A stretch of DNA of 63,846 nucleotides, the filler included, from Reclinomonas americana ATCC 50394 (Eukaryota): assembly GCA_048213135.1 (NCBI GenBank). It is 6 parts of 4 records of this genome, joined end to end, with 100 filler letters (N's around TTAATTAATTAA, not from the genome) between each part and the next. Parts side by side here need not be neighbours in the genome. Positions count along the whole stretch, not along the records: positions 51,333 to 62,336 come from PS015050.1; 5 more parts are not named here. One strand, given 5' to 3'. The first letter of the stretch is position 1. Every line of letters begins with the position of its first letter. Positions 1-62,436 of the stretch are shown in pieces. The notes beneath the pieces are model-generated. The model saw only the letters and a list, made by a program, of their open reading frames with translations. It did not search any database and was not told the DNA's origin. Both the position numbers and the translations under genes were made by a program.

Positions 1-888
1 CCGACGGCACCTCCAATGCCCATGCGCAACACCTTGGGTCGGAAGCCCTTGTAGCAGGCGGCCAGGCCCTCCTCGCGCGCAATCAGCACCAACGATTGCA
101 GTGTGTAGCGGTACTTGAGTGGCCCGCCGTTGGTGGCCTCGGGCAGTTGGCTCTGGAAGCGCGACTTGACCACATCAAACGGTGCGTTGAAGCACGTGGC
201 AAACACAGCGCCCAGGAAGCCCGCCACCAGCGTGATGCACAGGGAGCCAAATTTGCTTTCCGCTTGCGGAATGAACTGCATGCAAGGAGTGAGTCGACAA
301 GCAAGTGGCTTTTCGGAGGCAAACACGCACACACACACGCACCTGCTTCACACGATGCATGGTGCCAAAGTAGACGGCATTCCACACGCAGTTGCGCCAG
401 CACGTGGGCCCGAGACCGACAAGCAAGCCGCGCACGCCCTCGCCGCGCAGCGTTTGTCGGAGACAGTCAGTTGGCGTTGTGTAGCGGCCCAGATGCTCCT
501 TGGCCTGCAGACGGACCTTGATGACCTGGAACGGCGTCACCGTCAGCGCCTCAGTGTACCCCGAGGCAATGCCGGCCACGAGAGCCGTCATTGCCGAGTC
601 GCCCCACGAAGGCAGCGCCGCCAGTCGTGAACGCGTCATCTCGTACGTGGCATACATGACGCTGCTCTTCGGCACCATGCCCGCCAGCTCAGGCAACAGA
701 CCGCGGTACAGACGCGGAACACCGCCCTCCTGCAGCAGCAGGCGGATCGATTGCAACACACTGGGGTTGCTCTGCGCGTTCAGCTGATGCCGCGTCTTCA
801 CCATGTCAAACGGCTGCACAGAGAGGGCCTCGGCCACTCCCGCCACTGCACCGGCGATCGACAGCGCACTGGCCTCACTCAGCGGCAT
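1..888 (-). CDS. Mitochondrial carrier family protein, 2-oxodicarboxylate carrier (ODC/SLC25A21)-like; 3' end runs off the window
   Basis: ATG at 888. Three carrier signature repeats: PFDMVKTR, PFQVIKVR, PFDVVKSR. Also EGGVPRLYRGL and EEGLAACYKGF. A GT-AG intron at 276-342 restores the frame. Confidence 0.9.
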
Positions 889-16200: not shown

Positions 16201-16299
16201 CTGCGGAGATTACACGAAGCAAGTGTCAACAATTCTGCACCGTTTGGGAAAGGGANNNNNNNNNNNNNNNNNNNNNNNNNNNNNNNNNNNNNNNNNNNN

Positions 16300-16311
16300 T
16301 TAATTAATTAA
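16300..16311. other. Artificial scaffold-joining spacer TTAATTAATTAA, also at 27749-27760, 43592-43603, 51277-51288 and 62381-62392
   Basis: Identical 12-mer with stops in all six frames, flanked by about 44 N on each side, at five places. Confidence 0.95.
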
Positions 16312-16355
16312 NNNNNNNNNNNNNNNNNNNNNNNNNNNNNNNNNNNNNNNNNNNN

Positions 16356-27344: not shown

Positions 27345-27808
27345 GTGTGTGTCTGTGTGTGTGTCGTGTGTCCATTTTGTGTGTGTAGCTTTTCTGCATA
27401 TTTTTCCCCCCTTGTTAAGCCGTGGCGGCGGTCACCGGGATTGTGTGACTGCTGCCATTGTGCACGTGTGTGTGATTTCGAAAAGAACTCTTCTGTCTCC
27501 TGAGAAGGAGACGGAGAGGATAAGTGCTGTTGTATGTAGCGTACCGACTAGTGTGTGTGTGTGTGTGAGTGTCTGTCGTATAGTGAAACAAAAAGAAGAG
27601 TCCAACAATTGCCTTCATGTTAATGACTCGATGTGCACCTCAAACATGTTGTTGGAGATGGTGAGGTTCCACCAGATGTGATTGGCGCTGAAGCGACGAT
27701 TGAGNNNNNNNNNNNNNNNNNNNNNNNNNNNNNNNNNNNNNNNNNNNNTTAATTAATTAANNNNNNNNNNNNNNNNNNNNNNNNNNNNNNNNNNNNNNNN
27801 NNNNACAG

Positions 27809-30531: not shown

Positions 30532-33500
30532 ATGTCACGGCAACTACCACAACAGGTGGCCGGTGGCGTGCGTCCTCGAGGCGTGTTTGCGTCGTATGGC
30601 AGCTCGGGAGTAATGTCGTCATCGTCTTCATCATCGCCGTCTTCAGCGGCTGCTGCTGCTGCTGCTGCGTCATCCACACTGGTCGGTCATCAGCAGCCAC
30701 CAACTCAGCCTGTGCCGCCGCCAGCGCTGGCCCGCAACCCAACTCCACCCTCGAACAAGGTTCGCGTCCTCATGCCTGCCCAGGCTCCGTTTAGCTCGGT
30801 CGGCTCCAGCAGTGTGACAGGCGACGCCCCTGTTCCGCCGCCGGTACTTGGCGTGCCACCTTCGGCGTCGGCTGAGCGATGGACGTCGCCGCTGGCGCGC
30901 GCACGTGAGGCAGAGAGCGTACCCACCTTCAAGTTCAAGGCCTCTATCGAGCCCGCTGTGCTTCGCACCAACGGCGGCAGCATTCAGCCGGTCTCCATTG
31001 CCCAGCAACCGCGTCGACAGTCGTTCGGAGCCGACGGCAGCGGGAGCGGCATGAATCCGCAGACCGACGCCGGCAGCAACGGGGTTGGAGTGACGTTTGA
31101 CCTCGATGATCCCAACAGCGCCAGTGCTCGGCGGGCCAACTCGGCCTCGCGTGCTCGTGCAGTGACTGGCGGTGTGCCGAGCAAGCGATCCACCGTGCTG
31201 ACACAGCGTTCACCCGCACGGAGTCGCACTGGCCGCGTGACGCCACCCACTGCGGTGACGACCATCACCACACACGCGGGTATCTTGGCGAATGGTGGCT
31301 CTGGTGCAGCGACGGCAGCCGCTGGCGCACATGGGTCCGACAACCCAGCAGGTGTGCCGGCGCGTTCGTCGTCTGCCGGCCGCTCAGTGTCGCCCACTCG
31401 CCCGTTGGTCACTGTGGCCACAAACTGGGGCTCCCGTGCGCCACCTCCAGAGCCGACGCATGTGGCTGGCTCCGTGCCGGCTACGTCGCCGCTGACACTG
31501 GCGTGGGTCATGGCCCAGCGACACACCACCAACGACACCGACAACGACAATGCATCGTCAACCCGGAGTGAGTCTCCGGGCGAGTTTCCGCTGGAGGCGG
31601 AGGTTCCGGATCGCATGACGCCACAAAACGGTCGGCAGTCGCGTGGAACACCAACGCAGAGTAGCACACCGACTCGCACCACAACACCAACGCGCAACTC
31701 GACACCCACTCGCAACTCCACTCCCACACGCGGTACGCCCACCAATGAGCACGGTGGACGCCGTAACAGTGGCGGCAGTGTCACCACCCATGGCAGCAAC
31801 TCGGCCTTTGCACCGACCGGCGGCAGCAGCAGCAACAGCAGCAGTTCTGCATCCAAGTCCGGCACACCGACTTCCCGACCCGTGGTCAAGTCCCAGAAGG
31901 TCAATGTGGTGTCGGCCAACCCCGAGGAGCCGCACCAGCACCAGCACCAGCAACACGGGAGCAGCAGTGGCGGTATGTGTAATATGCGACTACAGTTGTT
32001 TCTTCCTGCCCTTACCTCATTCGTTCATTGCTCTTCTCTACCTTGCAGGTGGAAGCGGTTCGACATCACCACGTTCGGCCGTGCTGTCGGCGGAGCCACA
32101 ATGCGTGCAGCGCACATCACTGCACACTCTGATGCACGAGCAGCACGTGTGGGCGGCCACGTTCTCGCCCGATGGTCAGCACCTGCTGACCACGGCCATG
32201 AATCGCGTCATTCGCCTGTTCGACATCACCAATGGCAAGGCGCTGCTGGAGCTGAGCGGTCACAGTGCCGATGTCACCTGCTGCGCTTATCACCCGAAGC
32301 AACCGCGTTTCGTGACTGGCTCCGGCGACAACTCGATCATGGTGTGGGATGCGCAGACCAACACGTCGCTCGCCACCATGTTTGATCACAAGGACGGCGT
32401 GCGGTGCATTGTGTTTGAGCCCACCAACGGCTCAGTCTTTGTCACCACCTCGTGGGATGCGACGGCGCGCGTGTACGACTCGGCCACACTCCGCTGCATC
32501 GCCGTGCTCGCCGACCACGAAGACGCGGTGTTTTCGTTTGCTTTCTCTCCCGATGGCACTCAGGCGGTGCGTCTCTGTCTGTATTCGCCACAGCTCTGGG
32601 CATCGTGCTCACATTTATGCTTCATTCCTCAGGTTTCCTCCTCCAAGGATCGCACCATTCGGGTGTGGAACATGAGCACGCACCGGTGCGAAAAGGTGCT
32701 GCGCGACTCCAACCAGGTGTGGAGTGTGGCGTACTCGCCAAACGGCAAGCAGATCGTGTCGGCGTCGCGTACCATCAAGGTGTGGGACGCAGCCTCGTAC
32801 AAGCTGTTGGCCACCCTCGGCGGCCACACCGACGACGTGTCGAGTGTGGTGTTCCATCCGTCTGGCGCGCACTTTGCCACGGCATCATGGTAATGCGTGC
32901 CTGTGTATGTCGGCACACATGGTTGCCTCACGGCGCTCACTTTTTTGTGAATTTACCAGGGACTGCACTGTGCGTCTGTGGGATAGCGTCACGTTCCGTT
33001 GTTTGGCCGCGCTGCGATCACACACCGGTCCCATTTGGTGCGTCTCTGTCTGCACAGCAGTAGTGGCGAGTCTCTATGTTCTCATCATCAGCATCATCAT
33101 TATCGACGCAGGAATGTGACATACAATGGCGCCGGTACTCACCTGGCTTCGGCCTCGGCCGACGGCACGGTGCGACTGTGGGAGCCGCCGTGCACCGTGT
33201 TTTCGCACAGTCTCGAACTGCATGTCGACGTGGCCACGAAGAACACGCTGTCGATGCGTCTGAAGCAGATGCCGTCGGTGCCGTGCAAGTGCGAATTGCA
33301 GCAAGTTGCGCCGCCGCAACCCCTGTGCTCGTACACATACGCATACTTCAGTTGTCTCACTCCGCCTCCTGCACAGCTGGATCCCTTCACGCAGCGATAC
33401 ACCTCGTGTGGTCCGATTGTCGCCAGCGAGAGCACACGAGTGCACGGCCTGCAGCCGCACAGCGAGTACACGTTCCGCGTGGTGGCCACCCACGCCTCCC

Positions 33501-36500
33501 TGTCGACTCTCGAGCTTGCCAGTTCGACACCGATGGTGTTGCGAACATCCGGACAGTGTGACCTGGCAGAGGTGAGCTCCGTTCTCGTCGTATTGTCACA
33601 TTCACCACCCACTTTTTCCTCACGGTTGCCGGCAATCTCAGAAACGCATTCGGGAGCAGCTGGAGAGCTCACTGGGAGTGTGTGTGCTGGAGGCACCACA
33701 CAGCGCGGACAAGGACTCGGCCGATGGTGGACAGTCGCTGATTGAGGCGTTGTTGAACTGGTTGTCGGCACTCCCCGTGTCCACGACGAGCAGCATGCCG
33801 CGAGCGTTGGTCGGTGACTTGCACCACACCCTCCAGCAGTTGCTGCCGTACTGCAGGCCACTGAGCAGCGAGCTGACGGTCTTCAACGAGCACCTGCGCC
33901 GCGACGTGTCGCGCTTGATGCTGGTGCAACAGCAGGTGAGCAAGCGTGCTATCACCTGTGAAATACGCTGCCTGCCTATTCGACACCTTTCTCACTGTCC
34001 TTTTTTGATTGTAGATTGCTGGTTCGATTGAGCAGCGGCGCAAGTTGAACGAGAGCCTCAGAACCATCCGGGAGCAGATGCAAGTGGCACAGCAGGCCAA
34101 GGATCTCAGCCGACGACAGGAGTTGCTGCAGGACCTGCTCACCACGCTCGAGCAGCACGTTCGTGTGTGCGAGGAACTGGTGCGTGTGACTCGCCAGTCG
34201 ACGGTGCCAGACATTGAGGAGGCACAGCGGGCCACCAAGGGCAGCCTCCTGCAACGACATCGCGAGCAGGAGGATTTGATACGCAAGTACCCCGAGTACC
34301 TCGATCAATGCCTCAAGTTCCTCGGCGACAAGCGACAGAACACGGAGAGTGAGATTGAGCAGCTGGAGCGCACGCTGGCGGAAAAGCGCGAGAAGCTGTC
34401 GGCCATCACTTCCATGGAGGACGAGTACAAGAACAAGAAGCAGCAGCGTAATGTGGTGCTGGAGCCGTGGACCAAGTGGATGTCGAGTTGCGTCTCTTTC
34501 GTCAAAGCCCACACGCGCATGCGTGTTGATTCTAACGACAGCAAGCACAGGCATGACGGTCCTCGAAATGGCGGTCGACAATGCATACAAGTTGCTGGCT
34601 CGCAACTCGTCAGAGGCCGCGTACCAAGTGAGCACTGCTGGCAAGGAGGCGGCCGACGAGCTGCCGCGTTCCATGGAGGAACTCATCAGAGTAATTGATG
34701 TGCGTCGAACGATTCACGTGCATCACTCCACACACAGTGCACTCGGCTGACCACCCTCTGTTCTCCACAGACTGATATCGAGACCAGCGAGGCTCGCATG
34801 CGAGCATTCAAGCGCTTCATTGAGCACGCTGCCGAGGAGTTGCACGATTTGGAGCGTGGTTGCATGGCGGACGAGCTGCGTCAGGCGCAAGAGCGTATGC
34901 GCGACTCACACCGCCAGGTCAGCGCACTGGAGGCACACGTGACGCAGCAGCGAAGACGGCGTGCCGAGCTGGCTGCCCGTCTGCAGCAACTCAACTACAT
35001 GTCATCGTCGGCTGCACAACCGAAGCCTCACCACGCCGCTGAGCAGCCCGCGCAACCGCAACCACCCCAGTCGCAACAGCAGCCTGCGGCGCAGTCGTCT
35101 GCCCAGGCTGCCTCGCGCGCCCCGGTGCCGCCACCGTCTGTCTCACAGCCGGCGCGTGGAGCAGCTGCGCAGACTAGTGCCGTCAGCGGTAACGCTGCCG
35201 CTTCTGCTCCCGCACCTGGTCCGGCACGCAACCAAGACGCGCCTGTCGAACGCAAGTGGAACTCGCAGCCACAACCGCCACCAGCGCCACCAGCCGCACC
35301 GCAGCAACACGTGCAAGTGTCGCAGCCGGCGCCTGCGCCGCCGCTGCCTCCACCACCAGCACTGCCGAGTGCGCCGCCCCAAGCATCCTCCATGGCTGCG
35401 GTGCAGTCGTATGCCCAAGCACCGGCCGCCCCGCATCGCGATCACGAGGCGATGGAGAACTCGGAATCCGACAGCGATGCCCTGTCGAGCGTTAGCTGCC
35501 CGGCTCCGCGGTACGATGCGCCACCCAGACCGTCGGATGTTCCGCCTCTGCCTCTTGAGGCGCTCCAAGGTTTTTGCCCCTTGCCTCCCTTATTCGTCGA
35601 CTCGCGCAAGTACTCACTCTCACTCACTGTCATTGCAGCGGCCAAGAAGCGCCAGATCGCCTTCCAGGACCCGAATGCGCAACCGCAACAAAAGGCCAAG
35701 TTGCAGACGACGGCATCGGTTGCCGCTGCTGCTGCCGCCGCCGCTGCTGCCTCGTCTGCCAACTCCGGCACCACGACCACCTCGGCCAATGCAGGCGAAA
35801 AGAAGCAGCCACAGTCGGTGCTGGTGAATGGTTCGACTTCTTTGCAGTCGGCGCTCGTCAACGCCTCCTCGGCAGCTGCTCGGTCGTCGTCGCCCGCAGC
35901 TGCTGCGGCGGGTGGCGCCACATCGCCCTCACCAACATCAGCCATGATGAAGTCGGGTGCCGCTGCACCTCTTGCTGGCATTCCTGCCCCCAAGGCTGTG
36001 CGACAGGCCAGCGCCGTGGGCTCTGCGCAGGATGACGCGAAGCGAGATGTTATGCTGTCGCGCTTCTCGGACTTGCGCGAGATCAAGAGCGGCACGTTGC
36101 GTACGGGAGAGTGGGAGAGTGGCGGAGAAAGCAGCCAACTTATCGTCCTCTCGCTGCAGTGACTACAAGTTGCTGTACGCCAACGACAAGGTCCTCAATC
36201 GCGAAGTGATGCTGAAGCTGCGCGAGAGTGCCGATGCACGCGACAAGGAGGCTCATGCGTTGCGAGAGGTGCGGTATTGTTGGTTTCTTTGTTACAAGGC
36301 CTGGTCACTTGGACTCACTGACGTGGGAAAACTGCAGCTGAGCTCCCCGTACGTGGTCAAGTTGCTGGACGTGATCAAGACGCAAAAGATGGGCAACTTC
36401 CGCTTCGGCCTCGTGTTGGAACGCTCGCAGGGTTCACTCGATGGTTAGGCATTTGTCTGTGCCTGGCGCAGAAACCAAGAGGCTAATTGCTCGTCGTGCA

Positions 36501-38115: not shown

Positions 38116-40796
38116 ATGAGTGTGCGCGCGTATGTGTGTGCGTTGCCCTCAATCTTCAATTCCATGTGCCTCACTCTCCGCTTCCTCTCTCTCTCTTCCT
38201 CTCTTTCTCTCTCTTGCTCTCTCTCTACACACAGTTGTACGGCGACATTCTGTCGGAGCCCGTGGACGCCATTGTTGCGGTGATTACGGGACCGTCGTAT
38301 TCACTGGCCAACTGCACCATTGCGGATCTGGTGGATCGTGTGGGCTCGAGTGTGCTGGTGCGCGTCTATGTGTGTCTGTCTGCGCCTTTGATCCATCTTG
38401 ACTGATGCGGGTGGCGCGCAGGCGGAGTTCATGCGCAAGTTGTCACAACAGCAGGTCACCACCGGCAGCGTGTTCCACATCTCCGGCGGCGGCCAGCTCT
38501 CGGTGCCGTACATTATCTGTGCTCTGTACGACGGGCGACATGAGGGGCTCGACATGAGCAGTGCGGTGAAGTTGACGGTGCAGCGTGTCATTGAGACCGC
38601 TGACGAGCTCGGCTGCAGCAGCATTGCGTTTGCGAACTTGCACAAGGGTGCGCATGTGTGTCTGGAGAGAGGGCATAGACGTGTGCTGGACTTTGTGAAA
38701 CTCAAAAAGTTGCTGGTCTCGCAGGCTTCTTCCCTGCGCAAGCGTTCTTGCAGGCGGCGCTCCCGGTGCTGCAGCAGGCAGCGGATATGGTCGAATCCAA
38801 CAGCACTTCGGTGCAAGACTTTCGATTCGTCGAGCCGGTGCTCGCCAGTGGTGCCGAGCAGGGTCTGGTCGAGATCATCATGGTCCGGTTTGCGGACGAG
38901 GTTTGTTGAGCGCTGGTAATGGGCGACTCGGGAAGATGGAAGCAGTTTCGATTCATTTTCCGCCCGTCTCCACAGCTCTCTCGCACGCCAGGGTACAAGC
39001 CGCTGGTCGGCGACATTAGCCAGATCGTGAAGCAACCGTCGGCACCGGTCAAGGCTGCCGAGGCGCCTCCAGTCGACCCACGCACGTGCTACGCATCACA
39101 TGTGCGTCTGGCACCGGTGCCGCCCTCTCGTGCTCACGGCGGCGAAGGCAGCATTACCTTTATCGACAAGGGTGCGTATTCATTCTTGCGTGTCTTTTCT
39201 TTTTCTCTTCCCCTACTCACTCCGACTGGCAGGCGACGGCACGCAAATGGTGGCCAGAGCCACAGTTGCACAGCTGATTGAGCATCTCACACAGCACAAT
39301 GCGCACTGTTGCGTCGCGCTCCCCCATTTTGTCTGTCCTCGGTGACCATGCTTACTTGTTGCGTGCAGCCATGTTCACGTTCAGCTTCCTGCTGACCTTC
39401 CGTTCGTTCATGTCGCCGGCCGAACTGGCTGACCGTCTCATCGAGGTGTTCAATCTGATGCCGCCGAGTCTGGAGCCCAAGGAGTTTGCGATGTTCAAGA
39501 AGAACACCCTCGACAGGGTCCGCCTGCGGTCAGTCGTGCATGGCCCTCTCTCGCAGTGTGACGACCACTCTCACGTGCTGCTGCCAGGGTTATCAATGTG
39601 CTGCGCAAGTGGCTGCGCGATTCGCGGCGCGACTTTGAGGATGAGTCGCTGCTGGAGCGCATTCGTGTGTTTGTGAGAGACGAAGTGGCGTTTGTGTACG
39701 GCCCGGCGGCGATGCTGACCACGCAACTGAATGGCGAACTCGACGCATTCGTCCAGTGGCGTGAGGAACAGCGCTTGTCACAACAATCTATCCTGCCCGC
39801 CATTCAAGTGATGCCGGCAAATGCCACGCTCGACGACAAGATTGCCATTGTCTGCAACGACAACATACTCGACAAGTGGGACTCGACGCAGATTGCACAG
39901 CAGGTGAGATCCGTGCGGGAGGGAAATGGTAATGTGAAGGGAGAGTGGAGCTCTGACATCATCATGTGTGCGCAGATTACACTGTTGGTGTTTGACCTGT
40001 TCCAGCGCGTCGAATCGTACGAGTGCGTCGACCGGTACTGGAACATCGAGGGCAAGAAGCACTTGGCACCCAACATTTGCCGCGCCACGGAGCAATTCAA
40101 TCGTTTCTGCAACTGGGTGTCGTCGACGATTGTCACGCAAACGGATCTCAAGAAGCGAAAGAAGTACCTGAAGACCATCATTGAGATCGCAGAGGTATGT
40201 CGTGGTGTCGCCACGCAGAGGCATGGTGTGGTGCTGATGCTCGCTCGCTGCCAGAAATGTCGCACGTACAACAACTTTGAGACGGTGGTCGCGGTGGTGG
40301 GAGCCCTCGGCTCGGCCTCTGTGCGCCGCCTGACCAAGACGTTCGAGCAGCTGTCGAGGAGTGCGCAGGCGCTGTACAACTCGCACATGCGCCTCTTCCC
40401 GGAGAACAAGAACATGAAGGCTTTGCGCGATGCGGTGCGCTCGTCGCAGGGTCCATGCGTGCCCTACCTGGGCCGCTTCCTTACCGACATTATCCTCGCC
40501 GACGCCGGCAACCGCGACAAGGACGATGACCGTCGCATCAACTTCCGCAAGTGCACCATTATCGCCGAGGTCAGTGTTTCCTCTTGGGAAAGTTGTGATG
40601 CCTCCCGTCCTCCATTGCTCACTACGTCGTCGACTTTGCGCAGGCCATTCGCGACATGCAACTGTACCAGCAGTTCCCGTACTCGTTTGCGCGCAACGAG
40701 GAGATACAGAGGCGTCTCGTGTCGCTGCCGTCGCTGAGCGAGGACGAGATGTTTGAGTTGTCGCTGCGGGTCCAACCACGACAACCAAGCCGGTGA
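37555..40796 (+). CDS. Macro domain - REM - CDC25-type RasGEF fusion protein; about 12 introns
   Basis: Macro motifs LYGDILSEPVDAIV, GQLSVPYIICA and GCSSIAF. REM motifs ATVAQLIEHLT and FLLTFRSFMSP. CDC25 motifs IAQQITL, APNI..FNRFCNWV, NNFETVVAVVGALGS and PCVPYLGRFLTD..GNRD..INFRKC. Confidence 0.88.
38052..38114 (+). repeat. (GT)n microsatellite within an intron
   Basis: About 30 uninterrupted GT units directly after a GTGAGT donor. Confidence 0.95.
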
Positions 40797-43547: not shown

Positions 43548-43985
43548 NNNNNNNNNNNNNNNNNNNNNNNNNNNNNNNNNNNNNNNNNNNNTTAATTAAT
43601 TAANNNNNNNNNNNNNNNNNNNNNNNNNNNNNNNNNNNNNNNNNNNNTCTTCTTCTCTCTCTCCTTGTCGTCCTCTCTCTCTCTCTCTCTCTCTCTTTCT
43701 TGTTCTTGACTCGAGGCTCGTTCTCTCCGTTCACTGCACAATCGTTCCTCCCGTTGTCTGTGTGCTCGTCTGCCTTCTTCCGAGTCTTGCTGCCCGTTCC
43801 CTTGTGCCTCCTCTCTTTCTCACCTCCCTTGTCTGTGCGCTCTCTTGTTCTTATCTGCCCTTATTGCTTGACCTGTGTCGTTCTGCCTGCCTCGTTGTGC
43901 CTTGCTCTCCCTCGCCCTCCCCTGTTCTTCGCCTCTCTCTTTGTCCCCTGCTGCGCCTCACATCTCCACCCTCCCTCCCTCTCAG

Positions 43986-46900
43986 AATCCAGCAGCTGCC
44001 GCGAAGTGCGCTTCCGTGGCGACATTCCGCCTCCTCGCAACTCGTCGGCCGCCGTGATGCTGGGCGACTCCTCGCGGCGCATCTTCTTCTTTGGTGGCGA
44101 GCTGCACTCGCACGTGTGCGGACAAGACTGCTACACTCTCGATACGTGTTGCGTGCTCCTCCTCCCCGTCCCCTTTATCCTTCTTCTGACTCACTCCGCA
44201 CTGCCCCGCAGCCATGGACCCCATGATGTGGACGCGGCTGGAGTTCTCGGGCGAGTTGCCGTCGCCGCGATATGGTCACACGGCGGTGCTGGTGGATCCG
44301 CTGCGGGTGTTGGTGTGGGGCGGATGGGATACGCAGCGGAGATTTGCCGACGGCTACCTCTTTGATGTGGCGCGCCTGCGATGTCGCAAGGTGATGTTTG
44401 TCGGCGAGCTGCCACCGGAGCGGGCGTACCATGTGGCGGTGATGTATGAGCCGCACCGAGTGCTGGTGTGGGGCGGATCGGAGGCCAATGAGTGGAGCAG
44501 CGTCGGGTACACGCTCGACACTGGTGTGTGTCGGCGTCCCCTTCCCCCCTTTCTCTCCTTCCTGCACTCACTTCGATAACAGAGCGCTGGAAGTGGAGCA
44601 CCATGGACTTTTACGGCGACGTGCCTCCACCACTGGCCATGTCGGCTGCCGTGCTCATCGGACCCGGCACGGTGCTGCTGTGGGGCGGTGCTGATTTCGA
44701 TCAGGGCCGCCACAACGAGGGCTGGGAGTTGGATCTCGGTTACGCTGCCTTTGATCGTCATTCGCGTGCTCGTATTGTCTCACGCGTTGGCGGCCGATGC
44801 AGAGTCGCTCACTTGGCGACGACAGTCCGACGAGACGCGCGCACGTCCAACTGCGCGCGACGGTCACTCGCTCACGGTGCTGCGGCCGGGGCGTGCGGTG
44901 CTCTTTGGTGGTCACGACGGCGACTATTGCAACGATTTTCACGAGATTCATTGCGGTGTGCTGCTCTTCAGCGTCACCCTCTTGGCGCACACTCGCTTGT
45001 TCCTCACTGTGCCTGCACAGAGGTTGACTCGTCCAACATCTTGCCGACAGACATTCCCCGGCTGGAAAAGATACCGAGCACAGAACACAGCGGCGCGTGC
45101 ATTGCGCTGCGGTGGAATCGCGACGCGTTGGACGCGCTGTCGGCTGCCGTGCGCATCGCTCATCGTGCTCCCGATGGTCGTGTGGAAGGTCTTGTGGCGT
45201 CACCTTTTTCGCAAACCCTCGATAAGCGAAGCGCTCATGTGTGCTGTGTGTGTTAGTCCTGCGCTCGTGTCGCATGTTCCGAGCCGGGTACGGCTCGTAC
45301 CGCGGTTGTGTCATTTCCGACCTGGGTCCTGGCGAGCACTCGTTCCGCTTGGAGGCTCGCATTCTGGTGTCACTCATGGGCACACCGGGCTCGCTGTCGT
45401 CGCAGCCTGGCGTCTCGGTGGCGCCAATGTTGCCGGCCGTTCCGCGCGAAGGCCTCCAGGTGGAGGACTGTGATTGGGTGGTGGGACCGTGGGCACAGTT
45501 TGTTGTCGAATTAGGTGCTGCGCAGTCGTCGTGTATCCGCCACAATCCCTCCCCGTTTCCTCATTCTGCCTTCTTCTCTTCCTTCCTCGGCTCATCCTGC
45601 AGACCCCATCCGTCCGCATGTCGAGAGCGTGGAGACGCACGCCGCGCTGCTGGTGTGGGACTCCGAGTCGCCGTTTCCGCCAGATAGTGCGCCACCCTAC
45701 TTGCCACAGGACCCCGAGCTTTCAAAAGTGGCACACGATGCACTGGTGGAGGCGCGTTGATTCTTCCACTTCTGCCACCCTGAATTGGTCGCTCACACTG
45801 GACGTCGGCGCAGTTTGTCACATTTATTATGGTCCCGCACCCCAAACACAGTGGCACCACGGTTCCCGTTCCGCTGCAGCGTGCCCAATGTGTTGCCGGT
45901 GTCGGAGGTTTGCGTGGGTGCGCGCTTGCCGGCTTGCGCTCTTGTCTCTGACCGAGGAGGAGAGTTTGTAGAGTTCCGCCTGGAGAATTTGGTGCCGGCG
46001 CAGAACTATGTTACGCGAGTCACTGTGCAGGGCTCAACACACGCCGAGTATGTGCCGTTCACCACCAATGCGCTGGGTGCGTCGGTCACATGTGTGTGCG
46101 TGTGTGTGCCGCAACACCTCGTCTCACTCGCAGTCTCGGACAGAGGACGGTCAGCTGCAGGCACTCAGCAACTCACTGCTCGCCGAGTTCACCTCGCGCT
46201 ACGTAGACGTCAACCTCACCTCTGCGTTTCCTGGCTACGTAGGTGGGTGTCGACAAGTGTTGATCGAGCGCCACGTCTTTGTGCTCACTGTCACTCGGCA
46301 GTCTCGCCACTGGAGCGTGTGTCCACCGCTCGTGCCTCGCTTGCCACAACCACTGCCGCGCGCCAAGCCAACTTGTCGCCCGACCTGTCAGTGGTCCTCA
46401 CCAACACTCTCCAGTTCCTGGATTCAACCGGCGATGTTGTGGGCGCGGATCTCTTCGCCTCGACACAATCGTACGTCCATTGTTCCACTCGTGAATGCAC
46501 TTGTGCCGGGTCGACCCCTGATTTATTGCGCCCAGCCTGACTCCTCTTACCGTGTCGGTATTGGAACGCGCGGCTGAGCAAGCCCAGGAACTGGCGCGCA
46601 CGGCGGAGGAGACGGCGGTGAATGTAGCCGATGGCAACCTGCGACTGACGCAGTTTCAGGGCGAGCTTGCCAAGTTGCGTCCATTTTTGTTATTTGCGTT
46701 CCATAACTGCACGCTCGATCTGTCATCTGAGTGCGACTTTGCCGCCTACAGCGCCTCCAGCGAAGTGTCACCCGTTGCGTACCTCACTTGAATGAGAACA
46801 ACGAGTGAGGGTAATTCGCTCACCTCGAAGAGTGCTGCAGGAATCCGACATTGTCGCTGCCGTCGCTGCATCCAATGCCCAGGTCGATCGCGCATCGACA

Positions 46901-48198: not shown

Positions 48199-51100
48199 CT
48201 AATGTCTCACATGCACGAAGATATTGCATCGCAACCTTTCCACTGGGCACGCCTCGCCGCTGCGACCAAACACAATCGGGTCCTTCACAACAGTCGGCTT
48301 GAACATGACCGGCTGTTTGCGCAACGGGCGACTGGCACGGCCCTCCTCCGCTTCGACCGGAGCCGCCGGCGCCATCTCCTGCTCGCGCGCGTGCTGCAAC
48401 TGCACCTCGGCCACCACGGCAGCCGCCTCCAGCGACCACATGCGCAGGGAGCTGTCGGTGCCGCCACACAACACAGAGCGACCGTCTGGCGTGACGGCGA
48501 GCGCCGAGACGCGGCCAAATGTCGACACGTCAAAGTGGCACACCTCCATGTCGGTCTGCAGACTCCACACACTCAGCGACTGCGAATCACCGCCGACCAC
48601 CACGAATCGTCCGTCAGGCGGCGTGATGGCCAAGGCACGCACACGCATGGTCGGCGGCAGCATAAGGCACTTGACCTCCCGACCGGACTCCAGATGCCAC
48701 ACACGGAGGGTCTTGTCCCCACCGCCACTGACTGCGTGCACACCGTCGGGCGTGCAAACCACGGCCCCGACCCACTCGGTGTGACCCGTCAGCACCTTGC
48801 TGCTCGTCACAGATGGCTTGTCCACGCAAAAGTCCCACACACGCACGGTGCGGTCCCAACTGCAGCTCACAATGCACGAGTTCTTCGGGCCGACAGCTAC
48901 GCCGCTCACGGAGAGCGAGTGGCTCGTCATGGTGGACACCAGGGCTCCCGCTTCATGCAAATCCCACAGTCGAACGGTGCAGTCGGCGGCGCCAGTCACC
49001 GCGTAGCGCCCGTCGGCACTCACCGCGACCGTCGTCACGTCGTTCTCGTGTCCACTCAACTCGCACTCGGCCGCGCCCCGTGCCACATTCCACACGTCCA
49101 CTTGCCGATGCTTGCTGACGCTCAGAAGGCGCTGGCCATCGGGCGTCACGGCTAGCGCTCGAACAGGGCGCGTTCCGGTCGAGAGGTGCGCGACTGCACG
49201 ACGCGTGCTCAACGACCACGCAATCAGCAGGCCGTCATCGCCGCCACTGACTGCATGCAGTCCGTCAGGCATGGCCACCGTCGCTCGCACCGCCTTGCGA
49301 TGCCCGACCAGCCTCTTGGTGGACAGTGTGGTTGTCTCGACAAACAGTGGAGGAAGATGCAAAGCAGAAGCCGCCGCATCAAACACAGCAGTCGACGCAC
49401 TACCAGCTGCTGCTGACCCACTGTCGTGTCTTTCGCGAGTTGCCACCGTTGTAGCAGCAGCTGCGGGCGGAGAAGTGCAGTCGTCTGCTGGCGCAGGCAA
49501 GATCCACACGCGAAGTGTGCGGTCGTTGCCACCGCTAATGGCGCGGAGGCCATCGCTCGTCACCGCCACCGAATACACAGCTCCGGTGTGTCCCGACAGT
49601 CGCGAGACCACCTCGGCTTCGCATTCTGCGACCGGCTCGCCACTGTCGGTGATCGCCGACGAAAACGAGAGGCGCCACAGCAACAGAGTGTCGTCGTCGC
49701 CAGCCGTGAGGAAGCGTCGCGAGTCGGGAGTGAGGCACACACAGTTGACGCCGTTGGTGTGGGGAGCACGCACGCAATGCACCTGTTGTCCGTGGGCCAG
49801 AGACCACACTCGCACGGTGCAGTCTTTGGCGCCGCTGAGGAGGTGCTGCCCGTCGGACGTCACCACCAGGCTCATCACGTTGCCGGTGTGGCCCTCCAGC
49901 ACCCACAACGGTTGCACGGCAGCGTCACCAGAGTCCACGGCCGCGTCGTCAGATTCGTCGACATGTCGGAGAACATGCTCTTGAGCAGCCTGTGTGGGCC
50001 ACGCCCGGATAAGCTTGTCGTCGCCGGCCGAAAGCAGCAGCTTGCCGTCGGGAGTGGCCACCAGGGTTTCGACGCGGCCCTCGTGACTGCGCATGCAACA
50101 GTGCCGTACGGCCTCCGGCTGCGGGACGTCCTCCAGCTGCCCGAACGACAACGAGGAGCGCACGTGACCCAAGTGAGCCGACGGCATGGCCCACATGCGA
50201 ACAGTGCCATCGGCTGCGGCACTGGCCACAAAGCGGTCATTGTCCAGCAAACACAGCGCCGTGACGGGTTGCCGATGGCCGGAGAACACACGAACGGGGC
50301 GCGACGACAAGTGTGACCACAGCACCAGGTAGTTGTCCCAGCCGCCACTGACGAGCAGCCGATTGTCCGCCGTGGCCACAAGCGCCTTGATGCCGTCGAC
50401 GGCGGTCGCATGCATGCGGAAGACCTTGACTTCCTCGCCCGACGGCAGGTACCACACGCGCATGGTGGCGTCGTTGGAACAGGTGGCGAGGAAACGGCCC
50501 GGTAACGTGATAATTCCGTTGACGTTGCGCTCGTGGCCCTCCAGGCGGCGGACCTCTTCGCCGGTGGCAAGCACCCACACTCGAGCCGTTCGGTCCTTGC
50601 TGCCACTGACAATGTGCAGACTATCGGGCGTGATGGTGACGGCTTGCACCTCATCCGTGTGACCCTCGAAACGATGCACGACTTCGCCCGTAGCCAGTGA
50701 CCAGACCCACACCGTGCGGTCGTTGCCGCCACACACCACATGCCGCCCATCCGGTGTCACCGACACGGAGCGCACGGCATGTCTCTCGCCTTTGAGCTCA
50801 ATGTGCGACAAGCCATCGGCGATCGAGTACACGTACACCAAACGATTGCCGCCGCCAAACACCACGTTCCGGCAGTCGGGGGTAAAGGCGACCGACAGCA
50901 CAAAGCGCTTGTCAGCAGTGGGAATTCGGCGCACCACCTCTCCGGTCTCCACTGACCAGATGCACACATGACCGTCACTGCCACCCGAGACCAAATGTTG
51001 CACGTCTGGCGAGAAAGCTGCGCTCGTGACGATGCTCTCATGCGCCACTGCCTGCCATCGCAGGGCTCCATCGAGAAGCTGCCACACGCGGAGCGTCGAA

Positions 51101-51232
51101 TCTCCCGCACCACCACTTGCCACCAGCAGTCCGTCGGCACTCACGGCCACCGCACAAACGCTAAACTGCGGGTGCGCCTGCAACACATGGAGCGTCTCGT
51201 ACGGCGCCACCGTACACCACACGCGGACAGTG
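48199..51232 (-). CDS. Long WD40 repeat array (well over ten repeats) in a single uninterrupted ORF of about 3 kb; 5' end truncated
   Basis: Repeated GH...V..V.VTPDG...SG..D.T.RVW motifs across 1007 aa with no intron needed. Confidence 0.9.
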
Positions 51233-51332
51233 NNNNNNNNNNNNNNNNNNNNNNNNNNNNNNNNNNNNNNNNNNNNTTAATTAATTAANNNNNNNNNNNN
51301 NNNNNNNNNNNNNNNNNNNNNNNNNNNNNNNN

Positions 51333-52052
51333 TCGCGAGTGCTGTCCGATTGTGCGTCGATACAGCTCGCGCGTGTGGGGATTCTTGCACCTGTCGCTGT
51401 TGGAGCACTGTGTGGCGCGTCATCTGTTTGCACTTGCCAGCTGGCGGCGTCGGTTGCGCGAGGATGATGTGCAAGAGCACATTCTGTGCCGTCGGTCGTT
51501 GGCCGATCGGCACTCTCTGGTCTCCCAGATGGCTGAGGAGGTTCGCCGCTCGGCCTCGCTGCAGGAGCGCCTGTGGGAGATGGTCTCCTTCTCTTCGCGG
51601 TCGCCCGGCAACGAGGCACTGTGCATGGCAGCCGCCAACGCGGCCACCATTTTGTGTGCCGCCCAGGTGTCGTTTTCGGGTCGTGATCTCTCCGGTGTGC
51701 AGCTGCGCGGCAGTGACTTGCGTGATGTGGTGATGCATCGTACTGTGTTCCGCGGTGCCGACCTCTGCGAGGCGAATCTGTTCCGAGCGTTTGCTCTCGA
51801 GGCGAATTTCAGTGAGGCCAGTCTCGATTCCGCTCGACTCGCTCGTGTGCCCTACGATGGTCACACCGACGAAGTGATGTCTGTGGCAGCACTTCCGGAT
51901 TCGCAACACTTTGTCACCGGTGGTCGTGACGGCACTGTGCGCTTGTGGCGGCTCACCAGTGAGGACCCTGTGCACATCTACGTGGGACACTCGGCAGCGG
52001 TGCTCTCGGTGGCGGCCAGTCGCTCGATGGTGGTGAGCGGCAGTGACGATAA
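51333..52052 (+). CDS. Fragment encoding pentapeptide repeats followed by WD40 repeats, as in the NACHT-WD40 linker region
   Basis: AAANAATILCAAQVSFSGRDLSGVQLRGSDL..GADLCEANL..ANFSEASL, then GHTDEVMSVA..TGGRDGTVRLW. Confidence 0.85.
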
Positions 52053-52341: not shown

Positions 52342-55300
52342 TGTGGCGGTAGCGCTCGTCAAAGAACGATCGCAGATGTTCGTCGTGCGACGTTGACGAC
52401 GACTGCGCAACGGTCTGCTGCATCCAGCGAGCGCCGCCAAACCGTGAAGCACGCTCCTCCACATCCTCTTCACCCGCCAGCGGCTGAATGATAGCAACAC
52501 GCACGAGACTGGTGTGCATGGCGGCCGCCAGACCCTCACAGTAGTCCAAGCAGTCCTCCTCGGTCGGCAACAGCGATTTGCCGAGTCTCATCAGGCGGTT
52601 GCGCTCACGTTGCACCCAGTGGCGGATGAAATGGTCAAACACAAAGTTGCGTGTGAGTGGCAACGCCAGCGTGTCTGCGCTGCGGAGGGGAGCCAGCATG
52701 CGACACAGGCGGGCCAGCACCTGAACCACAGCCGACAGCAAGAACGGGGTGGTCACCAAAGCATCCAAGCCAGCAATGCTGCGCATCGCGGCACGATAGT
52801 CGTCCACGGTCATCAGAATGTCGTCACCCTCCACCTCGTCCCCCTCCAGACTGCCACCGCTACCGAATGACAAACCACGCCCGAGAGCAGCTGGTGACGG
52901 GGTTGATTCCTCCGAGGCGGCACGACTCGAATGAGACCAGCTGGAGCTGCTGGAGGCGATGGAGACAGCAGACGACAGAGCACCGACAACCAGTGGCACT
53001 GGTGAACCCTCGACCGGCGACGCAGCCCCAGCACTTGGTGATCGCGCCTGACTGTCCTGCGTTCCCAACTGCGAGCCCTTGACGTACACCAGATAGTGCT
53101 CAATGTACGTGTTGATCTGATCCTCATCGAACGGCGCAATGTATCGCTCCTGCAGTCGATCCAACTCCAATCGCCCTTGATCATCAATCGGTGCCAAGAA
53201 GCGACGGTAGTCGGTGCCACCGGAGCCGAGACCGGCCGCGTAATCCGAGCGGCACGTCACAATNNNNNNNNNNNNNNNNNNNNNNNNNNNNNNNNNNNNN
53301 NNNNNNNNNNNNNNNNNNNNNNNNNNNNNNNNNNNNNNNNNNNNNNNNNNNNNNNNNNNNNNNNNNNNNNNNNNNNNNNNNNNNNNNNNNNNNNNNNNNN
53401 NNNNNNNNNNNNNNNNNNNNNNNNNNNNNNNNNNNNNNNNNNNNNNNNNNNNNNNNNNNNNNNNNNNNNNNNNNNNNNNNNNNNNNNNNNNNNNNNNNNN
53501 NNNNNNNNNNNNNNNNNNNNNNNNNNNNNNNNNNNNNNNNNNNNNNNNNNNNNNNNNNNNNNNNNNNNNNNNNNNNNNNNNNNNNNNNNNNNNNNNNNNN
53601 NNNNNNNNNNNNNNNNNNNNNNNNNNNNNNNNNNNNNNNNNNNNNNNNNNNNNNNNNNNNNNNNNNNNNNNNNNNNNNNNNNNNNNNNNNNNNNNNNNNN
53701 NNNNNNNNNNNNNNNNNNNNNNNNNNNNGATCTTGACGTCTTGGAAGGTGTACAGCTGTGAGCGACGTGTGAGCGAGAGGGAGTGAGTGATTGAGGGAGG
53801 AGAGGGAGAGAGAGGGAGATGAATGGGCGAGGAGGTACCTTGTTGGAGCTGTATAGATTAATGTCTCGGCCAAGCTCGTCAAAGCCATCGAGGAGAAGCA
53901 AAATCTTCAACTCTCGGATGGCCCGCATATTGTCGGCCTGGAATTCGGGTAGCACCAGTTNNNNNNNNNNNNNNNNNNNNCGAGTGCCTCTTGTACCAAA
54001 TTCGTGTCGGGGCGACTTAGCTGCGCCAGAGAGACGCGCAGTGGCAAGCGAGCCGCACTTGATTCGCGCCACTGCTGCCACGCCCAGTGCGTCAGCACCG
54101 ACATACTCGTCGTCTTGCCGGCCCCGCTGTCACCCAGCAACGCCAACACCCGGCATTGCTGATCACTGATAAAGGCCTCAATCTGTCGTTTTTATAGAAG
54201 ACACAGTCTCCAAGTAAGTTCAATGTGCAGGAACACACAGGCAAATGACAGCACGCACCTCTCCGCGCAGCTCACGTGGCACCTCTTCATGACCGGAGAT
54301 GCGTGGCGTCGCGGTGCAGCGCAGCGGCACGTACATCATCATCTCCTTTTGCATGTCTTTGTTTTCCGAGTAGAACGCCAGTTCACGCTCGCACAGTTGT
54401 TGCAGTTGAGCATGCAGATCAGAGATGAGACGCCCAATTGGTGCTGAGGGAGGATGAGAGGCGTGAGGACAGCATCAATGAGGGACACAGGGCACGCAGA
54501 GTGCACACACCGGTGCGTATGTCTTGCAGTTGCTTGATAACACGGTTCATGTCGCCCAGCAGTTGCAGCTGGCGAACAAGCCGAAACAGAGAGCCTTCGC
54601 TACTGCCGCTGCCGAGGAGCTCACGCACTTCTCGGTCGTGTGCGATAAACGTCTCACGATGGAAGACAGAGTTGCGAATTTCGCGAAGCTCGGCGATGCA
54701 TGCCCGCTGCGACACCACAGGAGATGGTGTCAGCAGAAGCCTCAGTCGACATTAATGTGCTCACTCACCTCCATCTTGGACTCTATCACCATCCACTTGT
54801 TCTTCCCGCTGCCCGCGAGACCCGCATGCAGGAGAACCGAGGCAACCATGGTCACGTCCCACGTCTCGCAGCTCGGCGACGCCTTCGGATTCGAGTCGTA
54901 CGCCCTCCTCCACGCCTCGATCGACGGCCACACATCGGCGTGAAGTTTCACGCAATGTCCATCTGGTTTGTGGCTGCAGCGCACGGACAGAGAGAAAAGT
55001 TTGACATGCCAGGTCGATGGAGAGTGAGACAAGAGACGATACGCACCTCGCAGGGATGTCTCTTGTGTTCAGATGCAGCCAGTTCATCACGTCAAAGTCG
55101 CCACGATGCTTGCGCGCAAAGTCAAACAGGCCGCGTTGCACACGAAGCTGCAGTGCACGGGCCACCACACTCAGTGCCGCCACCAAGCGGATAAAATTCC
55201 CCTGCCTGTGTGTGTGTGTGTGTCTCCGAGTGAGTGGCAGCGCTGCACACGTACTCTTGTGCAGAACACGCAACCGTACCCCGTGTTGCTCGCAGTCTCT

Positions 55301-55962
55301 GCCGGCCCCGCCGCCGCGCTCTTTGCAGCAGTCACCGCAGGCGGAGTGAATGGTTCTTCTTCGCCGTCGGCACCCCATTCAGTAGCGTCAAAGGTTGGCA
55401 TTGGTGTTGGGCTGCATAGGAAGTGATGATGGAGTGAGCACGAAGCAGACACCAGCAAGAGATAGCGACAAGAAGCGTGTCTGAGACTCCACGCAGCGCA
55501 GCGGGACATGCACATTCACACGCAGGATGAAACCTGTCACAATAAGCACACCCACACACAAACCTTCCCGTCTGCTGCTGTGTGACCACCTCCATCTCAA
55601 ACGTGGTCTCGTCGCACACTCCGAGGGCGGCCAGCGGCACTCTTGCCGCCAAGTCCAACTGATACGGCATTGGCTTGATGATGCGGTCGACGTCCAACGT
55701 TGGATCTCCGCACTCTCTTCTCAAGATGGTGCACGCGCGTGCAAGCACTTGCCCAAGTGTGTCGAGTGCGCGGACATCGACCACGGTCACCGGGCGCAGT
55801 GTGGTGAGAGACGAGCTCCGAGTGCTGCTGGCGACAAAGTGCACGGCAAAGGTGCGATCCTGCAGGGGAGGAAGGTGGAGGAAAAGAAGGTGGGCACACA
55901 GAGTGGAGAGGAAGGGAGGGAGGGAGGGAGGGAGGGAGGGACAGGAAGGGAAAGCTCACCAT
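52342..55962 (-). CDS. NLR-like STAND NTPase: ubiquitin-like N-terminus, DZIP3-type HEPN-like domain, NACHT; interrupted by N gaps
   Basis: ATG at 55962 immediately followed by an intron. HEPN-like NFIRL, WDVTMVASVL and IAELREIRNSVFH (Rx4H). NACHT motifs YVPLRC, Walker A GDSGAGKT, Walker B LLLLDGFDE, VTCRSDY, IAPFDEDQI..YI, TPFLL and FDHFIRHW. Confidence 0.82.
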
Positions 55963-56058
55963 GACTACGTATGTCAAGATTTGTTCCGGGCGGGACTTGC
56001 ATGACACAAACGTGCACGTGACTTCCAGAAGTTCATGCTCATCTTCTCATTCTTTATT

Positions 56059-58564
56059 CTAACCATTGGCGGCGATGAGACGATCGAGGATCCACAGCTT
56101 CCACCGTCGCCACGCGCGCATTAATCTCCGATACAGTGGCTGCAGATTGAGCGTGTACTCGAACAGTGTGATGACACTGAAGAGCGTCAGGCCAAAGTTG
56201 ACGCGGTGTTTCACGCGCCATCTGTGCGGTGATAATGATGGTGCCGGTGGTGGTGGTGGTGGTGACAGCAGTCCGCCGGGTGGCGATGGGCTGAGACTGG
56301 GCAGCGTGTCGGCATCCGCCACCGGTGCCAGCCTGAACGAGTCCACCAGGGATGTGGTGGCGGGTTTCGCGGCTTCCGGAGGTGGTGAGGCGGCAGCCGC
56401 TGCTGGTGGTGGTGGTGGTGGTGGAGACGTTGGCGGTGATGACGCAAGGCGCTTGTGGTGCAGATCGAGAACAATCCAGAAGAGAAAGGCGTCGCAGCCC
56501 CAGGTGACCTCCAGTGGCACGCGCAGCACCGGCTGCAACGCACCCTGTCGACGTTTCGAGCGCTTGAGAAACACCTGGAAAAACGTGCTGTGATACGGTG
56601 AGGGGGGGTGTCAGTCCAGCGCGACAACGTGGAGAGCACAAGTCGAGGGGCGCGCACCGCAGCTGAATCCCCTCGGCCAGCTGCAGCATGTTTTCGGCGA
56701 CCTTTTTGCGCAGAAATGACTTGACCCTGGCGGGAGATAACAAGAGCAGTGAGCTCACGCATCGCCGACACGAGTGCTGATGAGCAGTAACCGTTGCGTG
56801 TTGGGCGGCCACACGGTCGAGCGCAGGCTGTGCTCCATCATGGCGGCCTGCAGATCGAGCCAGTAGCGCAGCACACGCGAAACCTGGTGAATAATGTTGC
56901 GCACGCGATCGACCACCTGCACGATACAGGCACGTGTCAGTCTGCCTTTCAAGGCTGCATCCCTCGCCACATGAACGCAACATGCAGTGCGCCAGGTCCC
57001 GAGCTCAACTGCGTTGCAAGGTGAGCGGAGAGACACGGATTGGCGTGATACGTGGGAGCCGACGCACTTTCATCTCGTCGGGCAGCTCCTTTTGCATCAC
57101 GGGTGGAAACGGTAGCTCGACAATCTGCCATGACAAAGAGATGAGCTCGTGAGGTGAATGCAGACTGCAAACGCGCAGGTCTTACATCTTCGCGCTCCTC
57201 CTCCTCGACACTCTGTAATGACTCCTCGTACTTGCGGCGGCGGTCGTCGGAAAACTTGCAGATCGACCACGACTTGGCCACACCGAGAATGTAGCGGCCC
57301 ATGCGAGAGAGAAGCTCCACACGGTAACCTGCAGTTTGGTGGAAGAGGATGGTGGGAACAGAGAAGTGAACAGACGGCAAAAGGAGAAAAGAACGCAGAA
57401 CAACTGGCCCTCAAGACCAAGAGACTCTTACTTCCTGTCCGCATCCATACCTTGACTCTCGCCGCTCAGCGACATGGTTGAGTAGGGTGAAAACAGATTG
57501 GTGATCGCACCCACCACATCGATAGTCTCGCTGCGACATTGTAGTGTGAGTACTCGCGATCACACTTCACGTGCCAAGCTACATGCGCACACGCAACAGT
57601 GCCGACATCCATTTGGGAGCGATGAACGAACGCCGCACTCGCACATGGTGATTCACTCGGCGCAGTCGCGTCGTGTACTCGACATTGGTCGTCGCTGTAT
57701 GTTGCCAGTGAGCTGACCTGGCTCTCCACTTGCCAATAGCCACCACCCACTCACCCGTGTATGGTCCCCACTTGCCGGCCAGCGAGTTACCAATGAGAAA
57801 GTACGGAATCGTCTGCGTTAGCAGGTTGCCGAAGCGACGCTGCCACTGATCGGTGGCATACGACGTGGTCGGCTCGCCAAACTGTTCCTCCGTACCGGAA
57901 CGAGCCAGGTTGCGTGCATGCACGCTAAAGACGCCTGGTGACACGCTTCAGAGCCCGCAGCACACGAGGCTGGAAAATTGACTGTGACACACTCACCCTT
58001 GACGTTCTCCACCTCGCGTGCCCGGGCCACCAGGCGCAAGGCCAAACGCTGCAGCAACATGAAGAGACTCCATCCACGCGGAGGATCCAGACTGAACAGA
58101 GAGCGCAGGTACCTGCACACTGCTGTTGAGAAGAGAGAGAGAATCGCAGTGCCTGTCTCCCCCTACTGGCGTGTTGAAACACAACTCAATCAGAGGAATG
58201 CCGCGGCTGAGGGCGTCGCGGACCGACTCCAAGTCGGCGACAGAGTAGTGGTACTCCTGCGTGAGTCGATAAGACAAACAACATGCACAGCGGAATGATC
58301 ATCCATTCAGCAGACCATGCCCACTCCGTAGCTGCGATGCCCCTCGCTCTGAATGTAACTATGTGTGCATGTGTGAGTGTGCACACACATGGAGACAGAC
58401 AGACAGAGCGAGTCGTGTTGTTGAACACACCACAAAGGAACCTCCACATTGGCCTTTGGTTTGCATCGCAGCGCGAGATCGATCTCGGCGTGGCTGAAGT
58501 CCCACGGATTGGCGGCATGCTGGCTTTCCCAGTTGAGTTTGGCATGGAAGCGCTCGACTTCCAT
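56059..58564 (-). CDS. Hypothetical multi-exon protein; could be two genes
   Basis: ATG at 58564 (MEVERFHAKLNW) and a chain of frame-consistent exons ending WILDRLIAANG*. No family recognised. Confidence 0.5.
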
Positions 58565-62336: not shown

Positions 62337-62436
62337 NNNNNNNNNNNNNNNNNNNNNNNNNNNNNNNNNNNNNNNNNNNNTTAATTAATTAANNNNNNNN
62401 NNNNNNNNNNNNNNNNNNNNNNNNNNNNNNNNNNNN

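Follow-up and report, generated by a model that had tools for sequence, protein, structure and literature searches.

The window analysed here, 63,846 nucleotides (nt) of DNA, filler included, from Reclinomonas americana ATCC 50394 (assembly GCA_048213135.1), carries on its minus strand an intron-split eukaryotic gene whose sequence supports, as its product, an NLR-like STAND protein with the NACHT intact. The firm part of our interpretation is that the product is a STAND nucleoside triphosphatase (NTPase) with a repeat-type sensor. Taken as a whole, we lean towards a single minus-strand gene encoding a protein of ~2,067 residues, in which a small N-terminal domain, an acidic linker and a helical domain, probably a Swt1-like HEPN ribonuclease (RNase) with R276-x4-H281, are followed by NACHT, pentapeptide repeats and ~20 WD40 repeats. 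The host, an intron-bearing eukaryote, belongs to a poorly sampled lineage, for which ‘protist’ is a plausible description. On this reading, held with the same slight preference, the gene runs from 55962 to 48199 with contig 51333-52052 flipped, so that the span 52342-55962 put forward in the earlier note covers only the N-terminal 40% of it. At one limit of that span, 55962, an ATG is followed directly by a GTGAGC donor; the other, 52342, is the edge of an N run, past which the gene continues. The parts of the gene are as follows.

55960..55962, minus strand: exon 1 (inferred), the ATG only, followed directly by the GTGAGC donor and a 100-nt pyrimidine-rich intron
55564..55859, minus strand: exon 2, the N-terminal domain, ~98 residues
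55280..55411, minus strand: exon 3, a Pro/Ala/Glu-rich linker
55047..55205, minus strand: exon 4, where the HEPN-like helical region begins; GNFIRL at residue 146
54769..54973, minus strand: exon 5, the central part of the HEPN-like region, with EAWRR at residues 214-218 and WDVTMV at residue 235
54511..54706, minus strand: exon 6, with R276-N-S-V-F-H281 (Rx4H) and the subsequent helices; the sole piece with HEPN similarity
54259..54443, minus strand: exon 7, a helical linker before NACHT, where homology to NACHT relatives starts
53839..54182, minus strand: exon 8, the NACHT P-loop, with Walker A (GDSGAGKTT) at 54134-54108, a 20-N run at 53961-53980 and Walker B (LLLLDGFDE) at 53901-53875
53729..53755, minus strand: start of exon 9, LYTFQDVKI, entering a 465-N run at 53264-53728
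52342..53263, minus strand: remainder of NACHT, with sensor 1 (IVTCR), a Ser/Ala/Gly-rich stretch of ~86 residues and NACHT-associated helical domains
51333..52052, plus strand as assembled: a contig of 720 bp with a helical region, pentapeptide repeats and the first WD40 repeats; probably inverted
48199..51232, minus strand: the WD40 array, 1,010 residues that include 18 Pfam WD40 stretches, closed by the stop codon; past the TTAATTAATTAA linker

Read as the reverse complement of 56100-53700, the exons are bounded by GT and AG and join into one open frame. After splicing of exons 1-8 it stays open for 459 codons up to the 20-N run, which is far beyond chance expectation. Eight GT-AG introns are proposed, 62-152 nt long; none has a length divisible by three, and stop codons lie inside five of the seven that interrupt the frame. 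Exon 1 was placed where it is because in exon 2 no ATG comes in frame ahead of residue 65, and because the frame meets a stop at 55956-55958. The three sequence motifs on which the earlier note had relied are all present on the minus strand: NFIRL at 55198-55184, WDVTMV at 54861-54844 and LREIRNSVFH at 54688-54659, with the Rx4H (RNSVFH) at 54676-54659, exactly where it had been claimed. The intron between exon 6, which bears this motif, and exon 7 has consensus GT...AG ends and measures 67 nt. This leaves no space for a terminator and a promoter, and separate transcription units for the N-terminal and the NACHT exons are therefore unlikely, judging from the sequence. Further upstream, the end of a same-strand open frame lies at ~56059, with AATAAA after it (56045-56061, minus strand), ~95 nt upstream of the proposed ATG; either the intergenic region is very short or the same gene has more 5' exons.

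The NACHT was judged by three features: a Walker A of the form GxxxxGK[ST], a Walker B of the form hhhhDGhDE and a sensor-1 Arg after a hydrophobic strand. Both Walker motifs are intact, as the earlier note had it, and so is sensor 1 (KIIVTCR, the Arg following the hydrophobic strand). A Pfam scan of 11 window pieces against 24,736 models, in which the exon pieces were taken singly, gave partial matches to NACHT (PF05729) with E=4e-4 and E=0.025; the fragment scores, 20.7 and 14.9 bits, are each under the Pfam cut-off of 26.7. The 307-residue piece that follows the 465-N run found 109 proteins at E<=1e-3 (HMMER, 1.84 billion representatives), the best with E=3.4e-15 and 37% identity. In a local search of these 109 relatives, residues 340-459, the Walker B piece, the 307-residue piece and the flipped contig matched the same proteins in the same order. 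Taken with the motifs, this makes the NACHT assignment solid. A word-based search of 5.8 billion protein clusters gave no match for the 307-residue piece (lengths 539-2000), nor did the metagenome scans, and the window holds no second NACHT copy. The Ser/Ala/Gly-rich stretch is an insertion of ~86 residues (~570-655; ~53090-52830, minus strand) without counterpart in the aligned relatives. It contains several in-frame GT...AG pairs; a loop is one possibility, and an in-frame intron missed in the gene model is another.

HEPN domains are described as four-helix up-down bundles with an Rx4-6H motif at the end of helix 3, in which the residue after the Arg is typically polar (N, D or H; section 6 of PMC3710099), often with an upstream acidic residue in helix 2 as part of Ex3[KR] (PMC3710099). 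The window protein has R276-N-S-V-F-H281 (54676-54659), with the polar Asn after the Arg; EAWRR at residues 214-218 is an Ex3[KR]-type pattern, one that is common in general. Exons 4, 5 and 6 were scanned against Pfam one by one as contiguous translations, which weakens any profile match. Exon 6 had a single match, HEPN_Swt1 (PF18731; E=0.017, 15.9 bits), in which exon residues 1-24 align with positions 76-99 of the 115 in the profile, where its motif lies. A local profile built from 30 bacterial HEPN_Swt1 segments found residues 263-289 of the spliced region with 15.9 bits (E=3.4e-4 among 611 sequences), against 5.8 bits for the best of 500 shuffles and 3.6 bits for the best of the 109 NACHT relatives. 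An hhalign comparison with a 24-sequence alignment scored 28.5 (P=6e-4) over 65 columns, corresponding to the motif helix and the next one; none of 105 real N-terminal windows reached this score. Single-sequence AlphaFold2 modelling of exon 6 (predicted local distance difference test, pLDDT, 72.7) gave helices at 2-14, 17-33 and 37-64, with R11-V14 (R-N-S-V) closing the first and F15-H16 in the break before the next. In the model, this placement of the motif fits the published description of HEPN helix 3.

We consider it probable that the domain is a genuine HEPN, and the nearest detectable HEPN family is, by these sequence comparisons, the Swt1-like one rather than DZIP3. The earlier claim of a HEPN domain is supported in part, by the Rx4H with its Asn and by the match of exon 6; the DZIP3 type that went with it is unsupported.

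Several results weigh against a HEPN domain. The PF18731 match is under its curated cut-off (15.9 versus 27.5 bits) and spans 24 residues only. A PDB sequence search with exon 6 found a designed coiled-coil protein (E=0.0053) and uS17m only, and the former match indicates that spurious E-values near 0.01 can arise with a helical stretch as short as this. For exons 4 and 5, no profile matched at all at E<=10. The global hhalign alignment is not significant (score 16.4, probability 3.8%), and neither it nor a subgroup profile extends the match to the N-terminal half of the domain. The broader 24-sequence profile gave 12.7 bits versus 7.9 for the best shuffle, and the 10-sequence subgroup profile found no match, with 3.7 bits where a shuffle scores 9.2. 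The three positive tests share the same ~30 residues and are not independent. Residues 1-316 are matched by none of the 109 NACHT relatives, whose alignments start mostly at residues 335-400 and in a few cases at 317-318, the end of exon 6 (local phmmer). Finally, structural modelling of the HEPN-like region covered exon 6.

Alternatively, the helical region before the NACHT would be a lineage-specific, non-catalytic adaptor or a coiled coil, its RNxxxH and its Swt1 likeness over ~30 residues being due to chance or convergence. The output would then be protein-protein signalling instead of RNA cleavage, from what would still be a NACHT-WD40 STAND switch. Such an origin agrees with the shortness of the similarity and its sub-threshold Pfam score, with the silence of exons 4 and 5, with the designed coiled coil found by exon 6 and with the failure of the subgroup profile; one of 120 shuffles also equalled the hhalign score of 28.5, and the word-based search of 5.8 billion protein clusters found no relative of the region (exon 6, lengths 115-2000). 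It does not account so readily for the fact that the sole Pfam family to match is a HEPN family, and that it aligns on the catalytic motif, nor for the distance between the local profile score and those of all 500 shuffles and 109 real proteins. The canonical Asn within the motif and the position of the motif at a helix end in the exon 6 model also speak against it. We regard a non-catalytic adaptor as unlikely, yet as the alternative that best survives.

It is improbable, in our estimate, that the domain is instead a HEPN of the DZIP3/hRUL138 type (PF18738), which would tie the protein to the HEPN-NACHT expansions of invertebrates. In its favour, this family is fused to NACHT in animals and has expanded in particular lineages, the unicellular Capsaspora among them (PMC3710099, Table 1; PMC9646362). 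Exons 4, 5 and 6, scanned separately, had no match to the 144-position PF18738 model at E<=10, where PF18731 did match, and the DZIP3 type is for this reason unsupported. The spacing of NFIRL, WDVTMV and Rx4H may resemble that of the DZIP3-type family. A search of one Chloroflexota genome and of 14 control genomes turned up no PF18738.

Exons 2 and 4-7 had no match in PADLOC or NCBIfam, the threshold for exon 2 (98 residues) being E<=10, and exon 3 had no match in the Pfam scan. A metagenome match of exon 6 to one bacterial intergenic stretch with LGSGSSEGSL was discarded as spurious. The N-terminus had been described as ubiquitin-like, which the searches with exon 2 do not bear out: no ubiquitin-family Pfam model matched at E<=1, the only match being MbhE with E=0.068, and no PDB sequence matched at E<=10. 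Single-sequence AlphaFold2 gave a model of low confidence (pLDDT 47.9) with no Foldseek match at E<=1e-3. The order of elements in it, three strands, a long helix, short helices and a final strand, is compatible with a beta-grasp at that level of confidence, and a ubiquitin-like fold of exon 2 is at present unsupported.

How far the gene extends past 52342 depends on breaks in the assembly. The window contains five spacers (16256-16355, 27705-27804, 43548-43647, 51233-51332 and 62337-62436), each made up of 44 N, TTAATTAATTAA and another 44 N, where TTAATTAATTAA gives stop codons in all frames. Spacers of this type usually mark arbitrarily concatenated records. The gene appears to carry on across the spacer at 51233-51332, and there at least the records would stand in a meaningful order. 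Four breaks, N runs or linkers, fall within the gene, and at three of them zero coding residues are missing. At the 20-N run (53961-53980) the leftover bases, G and AA, combine into a codon for Glu (..VQEAL-E-LVLPEF..). Across the 465-N run (53264-53728) LYTFQDVKI and IVTCRSDY join in frame into a typical NACHT sensor-1 strand. Since the flanks are in frame and homologues align straight through, these two runs hide no coding sequence, and their stated sizes of 20 and 465 do not represent true coding gaps. At the spacer 51233-51332, ..SGSDD with two bases and TVRVW with one base before it yield SGSDD-N-TVRVW, a textbook WD40 repeat; the junction holds only if contig 51333-52052 is flipped.

The joined conceptual protein, flipped contig included, has ~2,067 residues and no internal stop and ends at 48199. 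Relative P0004 aligns across it at residues 348-568 (independent E-value, i-E=4.9e-25) and 655-1019 (i-E=1.3e-26), and relative P0039 at residues 863-1318 (i-E=2.2e-48). Against the joined gene it counts that 1+1 bases are left over at the junction from 52342 to 51333 (289 N), which is thus not seamless, and that the WD40 array is reached only by flipping one contig and crossing a linker. An assembly chimera or dead gene, with N-terminal exons, NACHT and WD40 repeats drawn from different paralogues by scaffolding, is a very improbable explanation of the span: four N runs or linkers do cross it, with one contig on the wrong strand and one junction out of frame as assembled, but three of the four junctions are in frame with zero missing residues, homologues align straight across, the 2,067 codons contain no stop and the window offers no second NACHT copy.

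In the single gene that we favour, the region after the NACHT is made of repeats. Contig 51333-52052 matches Pfam Pentapeptide (E=6.7e-12) and WD40 (E=5.5e-14) on the plus strand as assembled, and in the relatives its counterpart follows the NACHT collinearly. The array at 48199..51232 matches WD40 with E=3.7e-132; to its 18 Pfam stretches the flipped contig adds 2, giving ~20 in total, and the region has no tandem repeats at the DNA level. The in-frame SGSDD-N-TVRVW junction argues for continuity from the contig into the array. Pentapeptide repeats and a WD40 array would then follow the NACHT in one polypeptide, provided that the contig is flipped and the linker crossed. Elsewhere in the window, WD40 open frames without an adjoining NACHT lie at 15005-16102 (minus strand), 31619-32890 (plus strand) and 32987-33742 (plus strand).

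The closest named relatives of this NACHT-pentapeptide-WD40 chassis are Mortierella-type fungi and bacteria, in agreement with the background given in the earlier note. Nineteen relatives were looked up by exact sequence and an organism was named for eight; seven of these are from the Mortierellomycotina genera Modicella, Linnemannia, Mortierella and Dissophora, and one is a gammaproteobacterial metagenome-assembled genome (MAG). A Pfam scan covered 38 of the 109 relatives. Most of the 38 have NACHT with pentapeptide and/or WD40 repeats; among the matches listed, up to 25 families per protein, 17 have an ARM_5 head, 5 a protein kinase and 1 a TIR, and none a HEPN. Proteins such as P0001 (Modicella reniformis, KAF9984884.1), P0004 (Linnemannia elongata, OAQ25253.1) and P0019 (gammaproteobacterial MAG, MCD6056434.1) share with the window protein a collinear homology from the pre-NACHT helix through the WD40 array, with a best identity of 37% over the matched stretches. 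They differ from it in their ARM_5, kinase or TIR heads, without any match to its residues 1-316, and in lacking its ~86-residue Ser/Ala/Gly-rich stretch.

For the head, the nearest parallel is the Swt1-like HEPN (PF18731), especially that of the bacterial HEPN-DUF499 ATPases of the Ava_2192 type (PMC3710099). KMERACIAELREIRNSVFHRETFIAHD of the window protein aligns with the motif helix of this family, and in both the HEPN, putative in the window protein, stands N-terminal to an NTPase. The likeness is limited to ~30-65 residues, with a score under the Pfam cut-off, and the NTPase of the window protein is a NACHT rather than DUF499. In one bacterial phylum, 88 of the 401 genomes sampled had HEPN_Swt1, a count in which one genome flagged as unpublished (G345) is included. 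There (loci L002-L031) the domain usually forms the N-terminus of ~1,100-residue frames that continue into DUF499, the HEPN-ATPase arrangement described for the Ava_2192 type (PMC3710099).

Animal HEPN-NACHT fusions are of the DZIP3 and CXorf38 types (PMC3710099, Table 1). The pearl oyster has >50 HEPN-NACHT proteins, and some of its NACHT proteins have WD40 or TPR tails (PMC9646362). The animal proteins (DZIP3/hRUL138 and CXorf38 types; pearl oyster, cnidarians, amphioxus) resemble the window protein, with its putative HEPN, in their N-terminal HEPN, with an Rx4H containing Asn, before the NACHT, and sometimes in C-terminal WD40 or TPR (PMC9646362, PMC3710099). The window protein differs in having no PF18738 match, in its apparently non-animal host, in its pentapeptide-WD40 chassis and in its extra N-terminal domain. 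The antiphage bNACHT proteins with enzymatic effectors share with it the order of effector, NACHT and sensor, and HEPN is among the effectors listed for bacterial NACHT proteins, HEPN RNases included (bioRxiv 10.1101/2022.07.19.500537); in contrast to them, the window gene is eukaryotic, split by introns and known from sequence alone. The earlier note had called its UBL-HEPN-NACHT combination unusual, which overstates the case for HEPN-NACHT, already described in animals (PMC3710099, PMC9646362) and among bacterial effectors (bioRxiv 10.1101/2022.07.19.500537). Because HEPN heads on NACHT are known from animals and bacteria, the window protein would be a known kind of protein in a protist that has been little sampled.

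If the protein works as NLRs and bacterial NACHT proteins do, a ligand would be bound by the WD40 and pentapeptide region. The NACHT would then exchange nucleotide and oligomerise, as STAND proteins do. HEPN RNases act through their Rx4-6H site (PMC3710099), and the N-terminal HEPN domains, once clustered, might form metal-independent RNase sites and cleave RNA in the same way. The outcome could be translation arrest, or death of an infected or non-self cell. An immune or cell-death role, and with it an NLR-type function in which ligand-triggered oligomerisation leads to a defence output, is what we infer from these analogies.

STAND and NLR proteins with enzymatic heads are a recurrent solution to cell-autonomous immunity in bacteria, fungi, plants and animals, and protists are the least sampled part of this picture. 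In open-access full text we found no description of a HEPN-NACHT-WD40-type protein in a protist outside the animal lineage. We suggest tentatively, and with some reserve, that outside animals and the lineages nearest to them no unicellular eukaryote had yielded a HEPN-armed NACHT-WD40 receptor before the window protein, which would be built on a chassis that is otherwise bacterial or Mortierella-type and capped by an N-terminal domain without detectable relatives. If true, protists, like bacteria and invertebrates, would have acquired RNase-type suicide or antiviral heads on a horizontally mobile STAND chassis through independent swaps. With a protist HEPN-headed NACHT-WD40 protein, the ‘sensor-triggered RNase’ design would reach a further branch of eukaryotes, and such a protein would offer a compact test case for the exchange of effector domains on a shared chassis. 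The reach of these statements is set by an assignment of HEPN on ~30 residues and by a fragmented assembly.

No Rfam family matches anywhere in the window, and its remainder holds several other coding pieces. A long exon at 39562-40734 (plus strand) encodes a RasGEF domain (Pfam E=4.3e-49). Kelch-repeat exons lie at 44190-44576 and 44580-45470, both on the plus strand (E=1.3e-19 and E=1.3e-5), and 5695-6159 (plus strand) has a weak legume-lectin-like match under the Pfam cut-off. At 3-347 (minus strand), on a separate record from the NACHT gene, is an exon of a mitochondrial carrier similar to 2-oxodicarboxylate carriers; it is the sole taxonomic pointer that the sequence gave, and by it a stramenopile host would be possible. 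Its best matches, environmental proteins included, have 60-76% identity: among chrysophyte algae, a Dinobryon/Chromulina cluster has 76% over 67% of the query and Epipyxis and Mallomonas have 63-64%, while Cymbomonas has 65% and Thecamonas 60%.

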